From IMG/VR virus record IMGVR_UViG_2529292836_000020: DNA of 7,092 nucleotides, one strand, 5' to 3'. A program made the translations under genes and the position numbers. Origin of the DNA: a virus. Taxonomy: Duplodnaviria; Heunggongvirae; Uroviricota; Caudoviricetes. The notes under the pieces were generated by a model. The model did no database searches and was not told the DNA's origin. It saw only the letters and a program-made list of their open reading frames with translations. Shown piece by piece: positions 1,422 through 7,092 of this stretch; the first letter of the stretch is position 1, and each line of letters starts with the position of its first letter.

Positions 1422-2738
1422 TTAAAAATCAGCCTGATTCGGGATCAGTTTTTGCCAGATAACTGAAACGTATTTTGCCTGGTAACGGGCGTCATCAAGT
1501 GCATTATGGCGCTCACCTTCGAATGGAATAGCCGTTCTGGCATCGAAGTCTATGGCTTTCCCCAGCTCAACGATTGTGCGTACATCGCGATCGTTGTAGT
1601 AACGCCACGGGCAGGGGATCCCCTGCCGTTCGTATGAACGGCGCAAAATCGTGTTGTCGAAGTTGGCTCCATTTCCCCAGACCTGAACAAAAAATTCACC
1701 GGAGTTTTCGTCGATAAATTCCCGCAATTGTAACAGTGCATCATCTAACGGGATTTCATCGGTCATAATGGCAGACTGCGCTTCACGTGATTGCTTCAGC
1801 CACCTTTTAATGACGTCACGATCAATGACTCCGCCAGCAGTTTCCAGATCGATAGTCTTACTAAATTCCGGTCCCATATCTCCGGTTTGCGGATCGAAAA
1901 ATATTGCACCTATTGAGATAATCGGAGCATCAGGATTTTTTCCCATGGTTTCAAGGTCGATCATTAGATGGTCACACGTCCTACTGGCGGATGTGATTTC
2001 GTGATGACTGTTCACCTTAATTGAGTGATCTGCCGTCTCGCCAGTTTCATTATCGCTATTGTGATGCTGATCGCTACCAGCATTCTCCTTGTGTGGATGT
2101 TCAGCGCCTTCCATTTCCTTCGGATCATTTTCCTGAACTTCAACCTGATACTCTTCATCGAATGTTTCCTGGTATGTTGCGTCGCCCATCACCGCGCCAC
2201 AATCAGGGCAGTTGCCGCCGCCGGTCTGACCGCAGGCGGTGCAGATCTTTTCCGGTTCCTGTTGCACTACTGGTTCAGGTTGTTTCGTTTCTGGCTCGTT
2301 TTGTAACGCATTTGGGCTGTTTTGTTCCGCTTTCTGGTCGTTCTGTTCCGATTCTTGCTGGTTCTGGTTCACAGAATCGCGGGTTTCAATCCCCTTCACC
2401 CATTTCGGATCATTCGGGTCGCTAATCCCTGCAACAAATTCTCCGCGAGAGGCAGCAAGCAACTTATCGGCGTCAGGCTGGCTGATATTGGCTGCCTGCA
2501 TAATTTTGTTTACTTCGTCAGCGGTAACTTTTACCGGCTCTGGTTGTGCGGTCGTGTCAGATGCACCAGTATTTTGTTGTGAACCTGAGTATGTACCGTT
2601 TTTGCGGGCGAAATATTCTTCTTTCGTGATTTCAGTAGCCCCGGCAGCCAGCGCCTTATTCCAGACCAGAAAGTTTGTTTGCGCGACCGTATTTTTCGCC
2701 ATCCTTGTCGGTGAAGAGGAAGTAGAACGGCCCTTCAC
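1422..2738 (-). CDS. Intact C-terminal ORF of the exonuclease VIII-like gene (438 aa from GTG at 2738; contains the DEDDh 3'-5' exonuclease domain)
   Basis: Longest uninterrupted ORF in the window. Listed separately because an annotation pipeline may call it as a stand-alone exonuclease. First in-frame ATG at 2702 has no spaced SD. Confidence 0.55.
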
Positions 2739-3389
2739 GCTCTACAGATGGTTCGACTTCCACTTTGCATTCGGTTTTTTCGTTGTCCGGAATTGCCGTT
2801 TCCACTGCATCAGTTTCTGGTACTGGCGACGAGAGAGTATCAGTTGCGCTCTGATTTCTTCCTTCATCTTCAAACACGCCCTTTGTAGTCAGGTATTCAG
2901 TAATGTATTTGTTCAGTGCCACAGGGTCTTTGTGAATGTCGATCGGACGTTCACGGACAAGGCCAAAAATAGTCTGGCGGTCGTAGCGAAGGGCATCAGG
3001 CTGTTTGCGCATTGATGCCGAGATACGCTTCCAGTCTTCGCGTCGTTGTCGATAACTTCATTTTTTGCCCAGCGATGGATGCTGCCGTCAATGTTTCCGG
3101 CATCCACATCACCAGGCCAGAGAGCGTAGGCCAGTTCGTCATCCAGTGTTTTCCATGTCTGCTTGTATTCGCGATGAGTGGCAGCAATGACCGGGCTGAT
3201 TTTTCCTGTTGAATTTCAGTGTTCTGTTGATTGGCTCTGGCGCGGGCGAGATCAACAACAGACGTGTATTTTCCGGTTTCCTTGCGTTCACCTTCGCGAC
3301 GTTTTTTCCAGATGCGCATCTCTGCCTGAATTTCGGGCCATTTGGCACCAGGCTTACATTTATGCTTAACCCACCCGATGGCATGCAGC

Positions 3390-3887
3390 TTAAGTCCGGA
3401 TACATGGCGTTAACTTCTGCATTTTCATCAACGCTTCAACGATATGTCCGTCGAATGTTGCCATGTCTTCCTGCAACATTCCTGGCCTAATCACCATATC
3501 AACGGTGATGTTTTCACATGTGTCGAACTTAACCATGACAGCGTTCTGTACTTCAGGGGCCAGCTTGTCAAAAGTGACGTTCATCGGATCTGATTCAGTC
3601 TCAACCGGGACAAAGGAAGCTGACTCCTCATCCCAGCGGTTTTCCTGCATATATTCAGCATCCCAGGAATCGAGGGCAGGGCGGGGTATACCGGGTTTAT
3701 CCTCGCAAACAAGAAATTTATAAGCGCAGTCCTGAGCAGCCGGATAATGTTCCAGGAATTGCCAGTGAAATTTTGCGCGGGCGCGACGTTCATCACCGGC
3801 TTCAATGGCAGTGGCTACAGCGACTGCACCTTCTTCCTTTATTGCCTGTTCGTCCGGAATAGCGGCGCAAATAAAGACTTTACTCAT
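3390..3887 (-). CDS. N-terminal fragment ORF of the exonuclease VIII-like gene (165 aa)
   Basis: ATG at 3887 with GAGGT 9 nt upstream; ends at an in-frame TAA at 3392..3390 created by the first frameshift. Translation matches my recollection of the N-terminus of K-12 YdfE (unverified). Confidence 0.55.
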   Translation of the reverse strand: MSKVFICAAIPDEQAIKEEGAVAVATAIEAGDERRARAKFHWQFLEHYPAAQDCAYKFLVCEDKPGIPRPALDSWDAEYMQENRWDEESASFVPVETESDPMNVTFDKLAPEVQNAVMVKFDTCENITVDMVIRPGMLQEDMATFDGHIVEALMKMQKLTPCIRT

Positions 3888-3967
3888 GTTGTTTTAACCT
3901 CATTACAGATTTAAGGGTGAACAAATCCCTGCCATTGCTGGCATATAAAAATGAAACCGGATATTAA

Positions 3968-4171
3968 TTACGGTGCTGTTTTAAGTCCTGCCGGGATTTC
4001 GTTATTATCCATGTGAATAACTTTATCGACCGGATAACAGTTACCGGGAATTTTCTGTTCTGCTGCGGCAGCCATGCATTCTTTCATTGAACCGTAAATG
4101 TCAATAACCATGTCAACAGGCTCGCCAGTATTAAGAAAAACAGTCAGAGTGAGGGCAATAGCAGTATTCAT
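3968..4171 (-). CDS. ydfD: YdfD-like small protein (67 aa; Qin prophage lysis protein family)
   Basis: ATG at 4171..4169 overlaps the dicB stop as ATGA, with AAGGA 8 nt upstream. Hydrophobic N-terminus MNTAIALTLTVFLNTG. Position immediately downstream of dicB matches the Qin operon order. The ORF track's longer start at 4225 would overlap dicB by 58 nt and is rejected. Confidence 0.8.
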   Translation of the reverse strand: MNTAIALTLTVFLNTGEPVDMVIDIYGSMKECMAAAAEQKIPGNCYPVDKVIHMDNNEIPAGLKTAP

Positions 4172-4356
4172 TGCCAGTATCCTTTTTGCATCGGGCGTAA
4201 ACGGGCCAGCATTGAAAGAATGCATATTTTATTTAATAGCTCCCGTTCGTATTTTCTCTTATTAATGGCATCTTCAGTAAATACAGGGTTACTGATTCTG
4301 ACACCAATTTCAAAACAACCTTCAGACGTATTGACGTTTGGTAATAACGTTTCCAT
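4168..4356 (-). CDS. dicB: Cell division inhibitor DicB (62 aa)
   Basis: ATG at 4356 with GAGGA 7 nt upstream. Translation METLLPNVNTSEGCFEIGVRISNPVFTEDAINKRKYERELLNKICILSMLARLRPMQKGYWQ is near-identical in length and sequence to E. coli K-12 DicB as I recall it. The GTG start at 4452 in the ORF track lies inside the processing stem and is rejected. Confidence 0.88.
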   Translation of the reverse strand: METLLPNVNTSEGCFEIGVRISNPVFTEDAINKRKYERELLNKICILSMLARLRPMQKGYWQ

Positions 4357-4373
4357 TATCGCGTCCTCAACAA

Positions 4374-4530
4374 TGAATTTTGTGATGCGGTGCCTGGTGC
4401 CTCCAGGTGACGTTAACCAGTTAACAATTAACGCCGGATACAGAGAACCCACCCATAAGCCAATACGGAAGTCAACTGGTTTTAACTGTTCCGCGTGCGC
4501 TCAGCCGCATTCACCGCATCACAAAATTCA
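4374..4530 (-). promoter_or_regulatory. Perfect 19-bp long-range inverted repeat (4374-4392 and 4512-4530) forming a predicted RNA stem that encloses a 119-nt loop; candidate RNase III processing site
   Basis: Plus 4374-4392 tgaattttgtgatgcggtg is the exact reverse complement of plus 4512-4530 caccgcatcacaaaattca. On the minus-strand transcript the 5' arm begins 4 nt after the DicF U-tract and the 3' arm ends 17 nt before the dicB start codon. Confidence 0.5.
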
Positions 4531-4534
4531 CTTT

Positions 4535-4577
4535 AAAAAGGGCGGCAGAGCAGTCACGGAGTAAAACTGATACCGCC
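4535..4577 (-). terminator. Intrinsic terminator-like hairpin plus U-tract at the DicF 3' end
   Basis: Stem GGCGGUA ... UGCCGCC followed by C and UUUUU (plus 4535-4539 is aaaaa). Confidence 0.55.
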
Positions 4578-4592
4578 AAACGTCACCAGAAA
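4540..4592 (-). ncRNA. dicF: DicF small RNA (53 nt; ftsZ-targeting antisense sRNA of the dicB operon)
   Basis: Minus-strand sequence UUUCUGGUGACGUUUGGCGGUAUCAGUUUUACUCCGUGACUGCUCUGCCGCCC followed by UUUUU matches the DicF sequence as I recall it, in the expected position between ydfC and dicB. Confidence 0.88.
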
Positions 4593-4904
4593 ATTGATAA
4601 CAGAGGGCGTTGCAGCGGGGTTGTCACTTAAGCGTATGGTCAACCTGACAACCCGGTGTCCTCAACGGGGGAAGGAATAACCCCGCCATACTTACCGCCG
4701 CACCATTTCGCGGATTGCCACAACCGGAAGCGCACGGTCGACGAAAATTTAACGACAGGCTATCTATGAACCAGCTACCTCGCCGTGCGCTTTCGCGTTA
4801 TGGTCTGACTTTGCAGGGAAATATCCTTTCAGTAAACTGTCTGTGCCGGATGCTCACCCGTGGAGAACTCCTTACTTACCAACCTTAGCTTCGTTGGTTA
4901 GCTA

Positions 4905-5123
4905 TTAACGCGGGTATGTAATCATTCTGGCAATGCTTAATGCCGCTGCTTTTTCCAGATTAGTGATATCCTGCTCCAGAGCGGACAGATTTTCAGCCTG
5001 CTTAGCCCTGGCTTCATTGGCCCATTTCAGATCCTGCGCTGCATTAATTTTCTGGTACGTCCACTCATAAAGTTCATCATCGGTATAGTCTGGCGCGATG
5101 ATGACGGGTTCTCGTTTCTGCAT
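4905..5123 (-). CDS. ydfC: YdfC-like small protein (72 aa)
   Basis: ATG at 5123 with GAGGA 7 nt upstream; stop TAA at 4907..4905. Length and position (third gene of the operon, upstream of DicF) match Qin ydfC. Confidence 0.82.
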   Translation of the reverse strand: MQKREPVIIAPDYTDDELYEWTYQKINAAQDLKWANEARAKQAENLSALEQDITNLEKAAALSIARMITYPR

Positions 5124-5152
5124 ACTGATTCCTCGCGGTGCTGTTTCGCTTA

Positions 5153-5281
5153 TCAGCCGTTAGATTTTGCCGAACTGGAAAGCGCCTGTTTAAATTCGTT
5201 GAAGCTGAGAGCTTCTTCGCCTTCGGCAAGACCTTCGAAGTATTCTTCGTAAGCCTTTTCCATGATTGTGTCGAAATCCAT
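5153..5281 (-). CDS. ydfB: YdfB-like small acidic protein (42 aa)
   Basis: Not in the supplied ORF track (below its size cut-off). ATG at 5281..5279 with AGGTGA 5 nt upstream, one nucleotide after the ydfA stop; translation MDFDTIMEKAYEEYFEGLAEGEEALSFNEFKQALSSSAKSNG; stop TGA at 5155..5153. Fills the gap between ydfA and ydfC; length matches Qin YdfB. Confidence 0.72.
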   Translation of the reverse strand: MDFDTIMEKAYEEYFEGLAEGEEALSFNEFKQALSSSAKSNG

Positions 5282-5282
5282 A

Positions 5283-5438
5283 TCACTCACCTGAGTTTCT
5301 TTCCAGCCAGCGACGGGCACCATTTTCGGTTTTAAACGTTTTGCTTTTGGTATACGTCATCGCGGTGAACGTACCGTCCTGGTTGGGGAACACGCCACAT
5401 ACCAGAGATTCGCTGTTGCCAAGATCGATAGTATCCAT
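5283..5438 (-). CDS. ydfA: YdfA-like small protein (51 aa)
   Basis: ATG at 5438 preceded by GAGG 5 nt upstream; translation MDTIDLGNSESLVCGVFPNQDGTFTAMTYTKSKTFKTENGARRWLERNSGE. The upstream in-frame ATG at 5519 (78 aa) has a weak SD; the true start could be either. Confidence 0.75.
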   Translation of the reverse strand: MDTIDLGNSESLVCGVFPNQDGTFTAMTYTKSKTFKTENGARRWLERNSGE

Positions 5439-5616
5439 GCTGACCTCATTTCCCCTTAACGCCGGGGTAGCGGAACAAAAACCTGCTGCATAGTTATTAA
5501 AGTTGAACCCTGCCGTCATGTTCTTACGCCTCGGGCTGGCTACTTAACCCCTGACCACTGTCTGGTAACTCGAAGTATTGCCCTGCATTCTGTGGGGCGG
5601 GGTGGGTGGCAGGTAT

Positions 5617-5660
5617 ATAATGTACTTTGTGTTCATTGTTGTAAAGTACATTTAGTACAT
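5617..5660 (-). promoter_or_regulatory. Predicted leftward promoter of the dicB operon (-35 TTTACA at 5645..5640, 17-nt spacer, -10 CATTAT at 5622..5617) overlapped by operator-like hexamers
   Basis: Sigma70-like hexamers on the minus strand. Plus-strand TGTACT at 5621-5626 and AGTACA at 5645-5650 and 5654-5659 overlap the -10 and -35; AGTACATTT is a tandem direct repeat. Confidence 0.5.
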
Positions 5661-5735
5661 TTTGTGTGTAAAAAAATGAGATGGGATAAAGTGAAGCACA
5701 AACCCGGAGGAAGGCGCTACCGGATTTATGCTGGT

Positions 5736-6155
5736 TTAAGAGGCTTTTTGTTTTTTCTTTCGTGCTAACTCTTCGTAAATTGCATTGTACTTCTGTTTTT
5801 TCTCTTCAAGAGTTTTTAAAAGTTCATCTGTCTCACTGTCAGGGAGCTCGTCCAGAAGGTCAATGATGATTTTTTGTCTTGGATTTAACTCCTGATAGAA
5901 ACGTACCTGTCCACTTTCTTCTGTGTCCTCTCCCAAAAGATAGGTTGGTGTTGTTCCTATTAGTGTTGCTAATTCCCTTAATTTCTCCCGGCGAGGAATT
6001 GTTTCGCCATTAAACCATTTGCTAACCGCTTTTGGTGTTAATTTCATTCGACGGGCAATTTCTGCCTGCCTTCCATGTTGTTCATAACCAGCGTTTTCAC
6101 AGGCTAGCGCAAGCCTACTGGCGAACTCTTTACGCGCTTTATCTTCATGAACCAT
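5736..6155 (-). CDS. Prophage repressor, XRE-family HTH (DicA/CI-like), 139 aa
   Basis: ATG at 6155, stop TAA at 5738..5736. N-terminal HTH region (GRQAEIARRMKLTPKAVSKWFNGETIP) and C-terminal segment IIDLLDELPDSETDELL resembling the DicA C-terminus as I recall it; divergent from a cro-like gene. Confidence 0.9.
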   Translation of the reverse strand: MVHEDKARKEFASRLALACENAGYEQHGRQAEIARRMKLTPKAVSKWFNGETIPRREKLRELATLIGTTPTYLLGEDTEESGQVRFYQELNPRQKIIIDLLDELPDSETDELLKTLEEKKQKYNAIYEELARKKKQKAS

Positions 6156-6234
6156 AAGTTCAATGATATTCGCTCTTGAATGTACTGTCAGTTCTGTTAT
6201 AGCATGTACTCAAAGTTCACATTGTGAGGGTGAT
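6156..6234. promoter_or_regulatory. Divergent promoter/operator region between the repressor and cro-like genes
   Basis: Minus strand: -35 CTGACA (plus 6186-6191), 17-nt spacer, -10 TATCAT (plus 6163-6168), then 7 nt to the repressor ATG, implying a leaderless or near-leaderless transcript. Plus strand: -35 TTGAAT (6176-6181) and extended -10 TGtTATAGC (6195-6203); SD GAGGG before the cro-like ATG. TGTACT at 6181-6186 and 6205-6210, 24 bp apart. Confidence 0.5.
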
Positions 6235-6489
6235 ATGAACCAGAAAACACTTGAAGATGTAATCAAAACTGTTCGCGTTGCTGTTGTGGCCGACGTTTGT
6301 GGTGTCAGCCAAAGAGCAATCTATAAATGGATGGATAACGGAAAATTGCCTCGCACAGAATATACCGGCGAAACAAATTACGCTGAAAAAATCGCTCTTG
6401 CATCAAACGGATTATTTTCTGCCGATGCAATTTTAACTATTGGCAGGAATAAAACTACTACGAAAAAGCTGATGGGAGTTGATTCATGA
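6235..6489 (+). CDS. Cro-like HTH DNA-binding protein (84 aa)
   Basis: ATG at 6235 preceded by GAGGG; HTH segment DVCGVSQRAIYKWMDNGKLP. The ORF-track start at 6163 lies 7 nt from the divergent repressor start, inside its -10, and is rejected. Confidence 0.8.
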   Translation: MNQKTLEDVIKTVRVAVVADVCGVSQRAIYKWMDNGKLPRTEYTGETNYAEKIALASNGLFSADAILTIGRNKTTTKKLMGVDS

Positions 6490-6911
6490 AAATCAAGCAT
6501 GAACACATCCGCATGGCGATGAATGCCTGGGCGCATCCGGACGGCGAAAAAGTACCGGCTGCGAAAATTACCAAAGCGTATTTCGAGCTGGGAATGACGT
6601 TCCCGGAACTGTATGACGACAGCCATCCGGAAGCCCTGGCTCGCAATACTCAGAAAATTTTCCGCTGGGTGGAGAAAGACACCCCTGATGCGGTTAAAAA
6701 AATTCAGGCGTTGTTACCAGCTATCGAAAAAGCAATGCCACCTCTGCTGGTGGCCCGAATGCGCAGTCATAGCTCAGCCTATTTTCGGGAACTAGTGGAG
6801 ACGCGGGAACGACTGGTGAGAGACGCTGATGATTTTGTCGCAGTGGCGATCGCTGGTTTCAACCAGATGAATCGTGGTGGCCCTGCAGGAAATATTGTGG
6901 CTGTGCATTGA
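6486..6911 (+). CDS. YdaT-like (CII-like) regulatory protein, 141 aa
   Basis: ATG overlaps the cro-like stop as ATGA (6486-6489). N-terminus MKIKHEHI and position right after the cro-like gene fit the YdaS/YdaT-type module; family assignment is from memory. Confidence 0.75.
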   Translation: MKIKHEHIRMAMNAWAHPDGEKVPAAKITKAYFELGMTFPELYDDSHPEALARNTQKIFRWVEKDTPDAVKKIQALLPAIEKAMPPLLVARMRSHSSAYFRELVETRERLVRDADDFVAVAIAGFNQMNRGGPAGNIVAVH

Positions 6912-6982
6912 CTCGCAATATTCATACCGGATCGCTTCCGGCAATTTGTGAGTAAAAAGATTCGGTATCAAAAGAGGTGAGT

Positions 6983-7092
6983 ATGGCTAACGCCTGGCTC
7001 AGATTATGGCATGACATGCCAAATGACCCTAAGTGGCGAACAATTGCCAGGGTGTCAGGGCAGCCAATTGCAACAGTGATGGCAGTGTATAT
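6983..7092 (+). CDS. 5' end of a replication-region gene (possibly YdaU/DUF1376-like), truncated by the window edge
   Basis: ATG at 6983 with AAGAGGTGA SD at 6972-6980; open to the window end, translation MANAWLRLWHDMPNDPKWRTIARVSGQPIATVMAVY. Family assignment is tentative. Confidence 0.5.
   Translation, partial: MANAWLRLWHDMPNDPKWRTIARVSGQPIATVMAVY

Follow-up and report, generated by a model that had tools for sequence, protein, structure and literature searches.

The window, by which we mean the whole 7,092-nt stretch of viral DNA analysed, carries on its minus strand, in this order, a CI-like repressor gene, ydfA, ydfB, ydfC, dicF, dicB, ydfD, an exonuclease gene, xis and int (Table 1). 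A first-pass annotation made from the letters had placed a DicF small RNA inside an operon. All of its neighbours do lie on the minus strand, in the order ydfA-ydfB-ydfC-dicF-dicB-ydfD, and the expectation that DicF would anchor the annotation of the small ORFs around it was borne out, the flanking ORFs being ydfA, ydfB, ydfC and ydfD. The same annotation had proposed a two-pronged division-inhibition module, DicF RNA plus DicB protein, and its protein half was confirmed: over the full 62 residues DicB scored 127.9 bits against the Pfam model (cut-off 27) and 130 bits against the NCBIfam model (cut-off 100), and its identity with the DicB of K-12 is 87%. ydfA has an alternative longer reading of 78 aa with a start at 5519. 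ydfD overlaps the dicB stop by 4 nt, and its C-terminus is frameshifted, a 1-nt deletion at 3982 relative to the related locus L002 being accompanied by a 4-residue extension.

Table 1. Features of the dicF locus, with positions in the window and the basis of each assignment
Feature	Position	Strand	Basis
CI-like HTH repressor	5736..6155	minus	Pfam HTH_3; phage Tritos annotates 'CI repressor'
Two further operator-like copies of ATGTACTNNNNGTTC	6180..6218	plus	In the divergent repressor/cro intergenic region
Candidate early-left promoter with two operator-like 15-mers	5617..5660	minus	Promoter scan, repeat count
ydfA (DUF1391)	5283..5438	minus	Pfam PF07151, 94.5 bits; homologous annotations
ydfB	5153..5281	minus	Homologous annotations in L002 and K-12; PHROG 2061
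ydfC	4905..5123	minus	Homologous annotations in L002 and K-12; PHROG 1744
boxA-like motif GUGCGCUUCC, directly 5' of the closing helix of the leader module	4726..4735	minus	
Conserved structured leader module	4603..4733	minus	Our own covariance model R1, 147.6 bits
AU-rich linker CUGUUAUCAA, directly 5' of DicF	4593..4602	minus	Identical in K-12
Mature 53-nt DicF sRNA	4540..4592	minus	RF00039; 100% identity to K-12 dicF b1574
Unpaired 5' region, DicF nt 1-15	4578..4592	minus	Predicted fold
DicF terminator hairpin, DicF nt 16-52	4541..4577	minus	Predicted fold
DicF loop nt 29-37, UUACUCCGU	4556-4564	minus	Holds anti-Shine-Dalgarno CUCC
U-tract of the DicF intrinsic terminator (UUUUU)	4535..4539	minus	Direct reading; identical in K-12
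dicB, 62-aa division inhibitor	4168..4356	minus	Pfam PF05358; NCBIfam NF049927
ydfD (DUF1482)	3968..4171	minus	Pfam PF07358; PHROG 1092; alignment to K-12, L002 and Tritos YdfD

An Rfam scan of the whole 7092-nt window gave a single match above its gathering threshold, to RF00039 (DicF), at 4591..4540 on the minus strand, with 76.7 bits against a gathering score of 48 and E = 4e-16. The match spans model positions 1-52 of 52 and is not truncated. The 5' bound of the 53-nt RNA was set one base 5' of this match from the annotation of the K-12 Qin reference, where ncRNA dicF b1574 stands at 2883-2935 of the fetched locus; in alignment to Qin no differences were found over the 53 nt, nor in the U-tract or the 18 nt that follow it. 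Read on the minus strand, region 4535-4592 is UUUCUGGUGACGUUUGGCGGUAUCAGUUUUACUCCGUGACUGCUCUGCCGCCC, then UUUUU. The earlier assignment of this region to DicF and its U-tract, for which a minus-strand covariance-model match above threshold had been expected, thus stands, both on the Rfam score and on base-for-base identity with K-12. The minimum-free-energy fold, the centroid and the Rfam consensus structure agree (-15.9 kcal/mol), with 15 nt single-stranded at the 5' end followed by a bipartite terminator hairpin. Compared to shuffled sequences the fold has a weak z-score, -1.39, so the call rests on the covariance-model score and the sequence identity and not on folding energy. The DicF terminator was missed by a consensus terminator scan of the window, its loop being longer than that scan allows. 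The locus shows three features by which DicF is recognised, namely the Rfam score and length, the single-stranded 5' end with terminator and U-tract, and the position between ydfC and dicB. DicF derives from the ydfC 3' UTR, and we regard it as almost certain that the minus strand at 4540-4592 holds a genuine dicF gene in that 3' UTR, within the early-left operon of a lambdoid prophage. The identification fixes the annotation of the RNA and of the surrounding ydfA, ydfB, ydfC, dicB and ydfD ORFs, and the window can be read as the early-left arm of a lambdoid prophage with an RNA-plus-protein division-inhibition pair.

The dicF gene found here is an already described and very common element, not a new one. 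Of 5426 complete E. coli genomes, 3969 (~73%) carry the DicF 58-mer (RNA plus U-tract), with up to 7 copies per genome, which shows that the element was already known; 3055 records match it at an identity of at least 99%. An annotation of dicF was absent from 15 of the 15 RefSeq records among the matches listed, and dicF is likewise missing from the feature table of L002. Sequence scans thus bring out a genuine feature that can be absent from standard annotation. According to a 2016 paper, neither dicF nor dicB was carried by any phage sequenced by then (PMC5069750). Records of phages with canonical DicF now exist; 17 phage records match the stretch from the leader module through DicF at an identity of at least 95%, and phage Tritos annotates a 'DicF antisense sRNA' at the homologous place, where Rfam confirms canonical DicF.

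The whole window is 98.1% identical, over 100% of its length, to prophages of ETEC O25. In one of these strains, F5505-C1 (O25:H16), the integrase abuts ompW, and the PPompW prophages of STEC and phage Tritos also match the window. Judged by these alignments, the window belongs to a lambdoid prophage of the kind that adjoins ompW in the closest genomes. The ompW-adjoining phages and prophages (STEC PPompW, Tritos, ETEC O25) have the same layout from int to a cII-like gene, at 94-98% identity, but their exonuclease is intact, a single 2472-nt CDS, whereas in the window it is split by 1-nt indels into five ORFs. The window diverges from the closest genome only within 1751-4475 and aligns without differences on either side, a pattern suggestive of a recombination patch; compared to the relatives, the part at 4001-4475 with dicB and ydfD stands out as divergent. 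The segment 4476-7092, which includes the repressor, the operators, the promoter region, ydfABC and dicF, aligned to the F5505-C1 prophage with no differences. The disrupted exonuclease gene means that the prophage may be decaying, and dicF might then be a silent relic, structurally intact but never transcribed in its host. The adjacent 2.5-kb exonuclease, in five ORFs through single-base indels relative to the closest genomes, would fit such a relic, as would the frameshifted ydfD C-terminus and the repression of the operon expected in lysogens. This explanation is, however, scarcely credible given that the control region, ydfABC and dicF are without differences from the F5505-C1 prophage, that the int, xis, dicB and repressor ORFs are intact, that the indels could be sequencing errors, and that DicF is expressed in stationary phase even from Qin, a truly defective prophage (PMC10448788).

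[quoted passage not shown] Upstream of DicF, a stretch of ~190 nt that takes in the precursor region is ~97% identical to Qin, with 3 differences and a 1-nt insertion. After ydfC the window is without 29 nt that are present in Qin, its dicB leader has a rearranged stretch ~9 nt longer than that of Qin, and its int and xis are intact, whereas Qin has an intQ pseudogene and an IS2 fragment. The repressor gene occupies the position of dicA, but orthology with DicA was rejected, since the protein is 29% identical to DicA and scored 56.8 bits against the NCBIfam DicA model NF007257, below the cut-off of 101. The intergenic region between the repressor gene and ydfA is unrelated to K-12 dicBp until ~50 nt before ydfA. 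By sequence comparison, the locus is not a Qin copy, and only the ydfABC-dicF-dicB-ydfD cassette is common to both.

The control region contains a promoter-like site, TTTACA-17-CATTAT at 5645..5617, found by a scan whose total number of sites was no more than that expected by chance. The window holds 4 copies of the operator-like 15-mer where 0.06 would be expected, a count not reached in any of 200 shuffled sequences. The transcript carrying DicF likely starts at the candidate promoter, and the prophage's own CI-like repressor would control DicF through the OL- and OR-like operators. Regulation of the Qin operon by DicA and Rem has been described (PMC10448788). Because the control region differs from that of Qin, DicF may not respond here to what induces it in K-12 (DicA, the Rem antirepressor, stationary phase), and with the cassette under a non-DicA repressor the conditions of Qin induction need not apply.

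Previous work on K-12 showed that two DicF species come from the dicBp transcript, a 53-nt species that needs RNase E and a 190-nt species that needs RNase III, and that the 190-nt species accumulates on RNase E inactivation (PMC10448788). RNase III also makes a 72-nt form, on read-through transcripts (PMC5069750, PMC10448788, PMC9438474). The 3' end of the 53-nt species arises by rho-independent termination at the U-tract (PMC5069750; PMC9438474), and DicF in K-12 binds Hfq (PMC5069750). By analogy, the AU-rich linker at 4593..4602 is likely the RNase E entry and cleavage region that makes the DicF 5' end. Operation of the locus can be pictured as follows. In a lysogen, the CI-like repressor, bound at the operator repeats over the promoter near 5617-5660, would keep the operon off. 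On transcription of the operon, a fraction of the polymerases would terminate at 4535-4577, where the DicF hairpin and U-tract lie, RNase III would cut a long upstream helix to give a precursor of ~190 nt, and RNase E would cut the AU-rich linker, at ~4593-4602, to give the 53-nt Hfq-binding sRNA, as is expected for these three steps from identity with K-12. The DicF loop and 3' half would pair across the ftsZ Shine-Dalgarno region and block translation, while the DicF 5' end would pair with xylR mRNA, as shown in K-12 with the exact sequence. Read-through polymerases would express DicB, which inhibits FtsZ ring assembly through MinC and ZipA; DicF RNA and DicB protein would hit one target at two levels.

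We infer the pairing of this DicF with ftsZ mRNA from its identity to the experimentally tested K-12 RNA (PMC5069750). In that work the pairing was proven by compensatory mutations, different ends of DicF were found to serve ftsZ and xylR in an Hfq-dependent manner, nt 1-15 were found to be the xylR seed, and pykA was found to use another part of DicF than ftsZ does (PMC5069750). The manX and pykA mRNAs are further targets in K-12, and pchA is activated by DicF in EHEC; DicF has been reviewed (PMC9438474). Our energy calculations used the K-12 ftsZ leader, from which that of the window's own host may differ. The duplex energy of DicF with this leader is -38.5 kcal/mol; since 105 of 1000 shuffled DicF sequences did equally well or better, it is uninformative and was dropped as evidence of pairing. 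In cofolding the net energy was -13.9 kcal/mol; DicF nt 26-36 pair with ftsZ -12..-2, and the paired stretch includes DicF nt 32-36 (CUCCG) against ftsZ -12..-8 (CGGAG). The cofolding energy was matched by 3 of 300 shuffled targets but by 67 of 300 shuffled DicF sequences, and the cofolding model thus weakly favours ftsZ pairing. The longest contiguous complement to the ftsZ initiation region is likewise uninformative for canonical DicF, whose pairing is discontinuous. As a separate observation, the longest-complement test flagged a hairpin variant, L042, the loop of which is perfectly complementary over 11 nt to the Shine-Dalgarno region of E. coli ftsZ, a result matched by 0 of 200 shuffles.

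The newest possible reading of the locus concerns not DicF but the leader module upstream of it. The module is roughly equivalent to the additional ~137 nt by which the published 190-nt precursor exceeds the 53-nt DicF. No Rfam family matched the module stretch in the window at E <= 10, and membership in the C4/IsrK-type antisense RNAs or another known family was rejected on that ground. A covariance model, R1, was built from 23 aligned representatives differing by more than 4%, with five helices proposed, and the structure was tested on 98 loci aligned to R1. In this alignment, which was fitted to the model and is made up of related sequences of modest diversity, 95.0% of cells were paired, as against 37-57% when the partners were slid by 1-3 columns. 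Changes on both sides were found for 8 pairs (shuffle mean 4.6; 8 was reached in 6 of 500 shuffles) and two-sided changes for 38 cells, a number seen in 0 of 500 shuffles. The covariation score was 0.141, compared to 0.097 for the shuffles, none of 500 reaching the observed value, and to 0.079 or less for the slid structures. The compensatory changes lie in three helices: the closing helix; hairpin A, which has a UCCUU-rich loop; and stem B, which closes the invariant loop GGUUGACCAUACGCYURAG. By eye, hairpin A is CCCGGG/CCCGGG in Trabulsiella and CAGGG/CCCUG in Erwinia, and stem B is GGAUUGUCA/UGGCAAUCC in Citrobacter. There is moderate evidence, then, that the module is a structured RNA.

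A distant BLAST search of the ydfC-dicF spacer against phages gave matches to the upstream stretch only in P1, P7, cdtI, Stx2c-converting phages and 2H10, and to a longer stretch in an Actinobacillus phage. RF00039 had no match at E <= 1 in these module-bearing phages (P1, P7, cdtI, Stx2c, 2H10, Actinobacillus). An exact-pattern scan with the invariant core GGTTGACCATRCGCYTRAGTG found it in at least 120 viral contigs, and among species-representative genomes in Escherichia, Shigella, Citrobacter, Trabulsiella and Erwinia. The pattern was also present in a few MAG bins, which are probably contaminated; a match in Erythrobacter, GC-rich and without the surrounding module sequence, was rejected as due to chance. 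A terminator hairpin follows the module in the representative variants examined. Among the matches listed, canonical DicF follows it in 59 of the 101 unique variants, and at least six other types of terminator hairpin follow in the remainder.

On a rival reading, the DicF hairpin and U-tract would act mainly as an attenuator or terminator within the operon, limiting read-through into toxic dicB, and the 53-nt RNA would be a by-product with little regulatory effect in this host. The element is a textbook intrinsic terminator between ydfC and dicB; the main transcripts in K-12 are ydfABC-dicF, ydfABC-dicFB-ydfD being rarer (PMC10448788); and related phages hold other terminator hairpins, with different loops, at the position of DicF, which suggests that termination is the conserved function. 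Against this, all 53 nt are identical to those of K-12, the unpaired 5' 15 nt and the loop included, an identity that a mere terminator does not need. Further, canonical DicF recurs behind the module at the frequency just given, the regulatory activity of the exact RNA has been proven (PMC5069750), and the termination and regulatory roles are compatible. We consider a role chiefly as attenuator very unlikely, and retain the identification of a genuine regulatory RNA gene.

In P1 and P7 the module lies in the ban operon leader, the 'dicF-like region', directly downstream of the Pban promoter and the C1 operators and ahead of tRNA genes and ban. As in the window, the module (R1 99.6 bits in P1) is followed by an intrinsic terminator, but the P1/P7 hairpin is short and unrelated to DicF, with no RF00039 match at E <= 1. 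The P1 record itself annotates part of the matching stretch as a 'dicF-like region', and Faubladier and Bouche, in 1994, reportedly found dicF-related prophage sequences to be widespread. From the P1 annotation and the 1994 paper, the homology of the module was apparently noticed long before the present work. In the literature text searched we found no structure or function assigned to the module, and its 14-nt core had no match there.

Directly 5' of the closing helix of the module is the motif GUGCGCUUCC, which we take to resemble the boxA consensus. Variants of this motif elsewhere are GTGCTCTTTCC, GTGCTCTCTTC and GTGCTCTCAGC, with TGCTCTTTCC in Trabulsiella, and most lambdoid variants carry such a motif. 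In cdtI-type phages the cI repressor gene lies a few hundred nt upstream of the module. The 5' strand of the module has an alternative in the minimum-free-energy fold, where it can pair into a long upstream helix, ~4716-4803, and this predicted helix could be an RNase III substrate.

A tentative proposal, to which we give somewhat less than even chances, is that DicF is one of several interchangeable 3' cassettes carried on the ~130-nt leader, and that the leader is a general cis-acting device of phage early operons. Such a leader could work in either of two ways. It could be a maturation scaffold that places RNase III and RNase E to release the terminator-hairpin sRNA that follows; this reading is suggested because the 190-nt species accumulates without active RNase E, because a terminator hairpin follows the module, and because of the possible RNase III helix. 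Alternatively, it could direct boxA-linked processive antitermination, with polymerase reading through the terminator into dicB, kil or ban; this reading is suggested because the module lies upstream of an intrinsic terminator in an early operon, near a repressor gene in cdtI-type phages and a repressor-controlled promoter in P1, and with a boxA-like motif in most lambdoid variants. No N-like antiterminator protein was found near the module, where PHROGs gave only families of unknown function (cdtI orf39, YdfA, YdfB and YdfC). Likeness to the HK022 put RNA is positional and conceptual only, both being structured early-operon RNAs upstream of intrinsic terminators. put is about 70 nt long with two stems (PMC9378689), whereas the window's module is ~130 nt with a multi-helix junction, and a put-like identity was rejected, R1 having found nothing in HK022 at E <= 10 and BLAST nothing either. 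If the proposal is true, a conserved leader with interchangeable sRNA hairpins would explain how prophages diversify their host-targeting sRNAs, and the module would offer a concrete way into the making and use of the 190-nt precursor.

The Rac-type phage Rac-SA53 is arranged as is the window, with a terminator-hairpin sRNA, an STnc100-like leader and a gene for a small FtsZ inhibitor, and Shigella phage 75/02 Stx and Actinobacillus phage pPE4 have similar layouts. The Rac-type phages carry Kil (kilR) where the window carries DicB. With 41.1 bits, the hairpin RNA of Rac-SA53 falls short of the DicF gathering score (48), and neither Shigella phage 75/02 Stx nor pPE4 gave a DicF match at E <= 1. 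In the window, the dicF-dicB spacer, that is, the dicB leader, matched STnc100 (RF02076) at 4379..4528 on the minus strand with E = 7.7e-7, a partial match over model positions 21-154 of 206 which, at 38.5 bits against a gathering score of 47, shows relatedness to that family but falls short of membership in it. STnc100 also matches at the same place in Tritos, and upstream of kil in Rac-SA53, Shigella phage 75/02 Stx and pPE4. The matches upstream of kil genes suggest a leader common to small FtsZ-inhibitor genes.

Directly 5' of DicF on the minus strand is an RNA module of ~130 nt that is conserved and structured, with covariation in support of its structure. No Rfam family matched the module, which approximately matches the portion that the published 190-nt precursor of DicF has in addition. 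The module is also present in phages P1 and P7, where it lies in the ban leader, in phages cdtI, Stx2c and 2H10, and in prophages of Citrobacter, Trabulsiella and Erwinia. There, DicF is replaced after the module by other terminator hairpins. Module and DicF sequences of enterobacterial or P1 type were also found, nearly unchanged, in three MAG bins (L143, L144 and L149). These bins are labelled Bacillota, Veillonella parvula and Collinsella; mis-binning of Escherichia phage contigs is the likeliest cause of their presence there. At the 5' side of the module's closing helix is a motif with a presumed resemblance to Nus-factor boxA sites. Variants of this boxA-like motif (GTGCTCTTTCC, GTGCTCTCTTC and GTGCTCTCAGC) occur at other loci, and it is missing from the module variants of P1, P7, pPE4 and two further loci, L020 and L065.

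Features of the dicF region and of a related hairpin locus
Feature	Position	Strand	Remarks
Conserved structured RNA module, ~130 nt	4603-4733	minus	directly 5' of DicF
boxA-like motif GUGCGCUUCC	4726-4735	minus	next to the closing helix, on its 5' side
L042 hairpin variant in the DicF position	~5530-5600 of IMG/VR contig 3300036778_000215		loop AGUUUCUCUCC
STnc100-like match, dicF-dicB spacer	4379-4528	minus	Rfam, partial, sub-threshold
Exonuclease gene	1422-3893	minus	five ORFs
ATGTACTNNNNGTTC copies	5617-5660 and 6180-6218		two promoter regions, either side of the repressor gene
'Toxin YdaT family' protein (Pfam, RefSeq name)	6486-6911	plus	

The hairpins found in the DicF position differ among loci. 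At L042, the loop of the hairpin contains an 11-nt perfect complement to the Shine-Dalgarno region of E. coli ftsZ (0/200 shuffles). Judged on contiguous complementarity, the L042 RNA would be a better anti-ftsZ RNA than DicF itself. A longer hairpin follows the module in L152 (Erwinia tracheiphila), in L138 and L150 (both Trabulsiella) and in L057. The terminator stem of each contains a GGAGG that resembles a Shine-Dalgarno sequence, with ATG or GTG after it, and may thus hold a mini-ORF or encode a leader peptide.

The spacer between dicF and dicB gave a match to Rfam STnc100 at 38.5 bits (E = 7.7e-7), short of the gathering score of 47. STnc100 also matches the same place upstream of the kil genes of Rac-SA53, Shigella phage 75/02 Stx and Actinobacillus phage pPE4. 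The occurrence of these matches upstream of both dicB and kil genes suggests that small FtsZ-inhibitor genes have a common leader. On the other side of dicF, the ydfC 3' UTR lacks 29 nt present in K-12 Qin, at about 4853/4854 on the minus strand, just past the ydfC stop codon.

DicF RNA can escape standard annotation. The dicF sequence in the closest-genome reference (NZ_CP024257.1, strain F5505-C1) and in the RefSeq E. coli records listed is identical to K-12 dicF. The feature table of NZ_CP024257.1 has no dicF, and dicF annotation is absent from all 15 matching RefSeq E. coli records listed.

With only 29% identity between DicA and the repressor encoded at 5736-6155, the dicF operon would here be under a different immunity system. 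The 15-mer ATGTACTNNNNGTTC occurs four times in the window, with 0.06 copies expected by chance, and the copies are arranged like OL and OR operators. The protein named as a YdaT family toxin has a hit (E = 3.5e-45) to PHROG 163, 'CII-like transcriptional activator', and its gene follows a cro-like gene, the place expected for cII; the 'toxin' name may be misleading.

When the window was aligned with the F5505-C1 genome, all 143 differing columns fell within 1751-4475, and none in the flanks, 1-1750 and 4476-7092. The differences are most concentrated across dicB and ydfD (4001-4475); among them is an insertion of 9 nt at 4467-4475. From the alignment, 1751-4475 looks like a recombination patch. 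In phage Tritos and in the closest genomes, the exonuclease gene is one CDS of 2472 nt. In the window, single-base indels at 2658, 3042, 3213, 3394 and 3419 break it up into five ORFs, which reflects either pseudogenisation or sequencing error. The gene also has an in-frame 3-nt deletion at 3486, and a further 1-nt indel lies at 3896, just upstream of the start. In ydfD (3968-4171, minus strand), one nucleotide that the closest genome has is deleted at 3982, and the protein is four residues longer as a result, with the C-terminus ...PAGLKTAP rather than ...PAGL.
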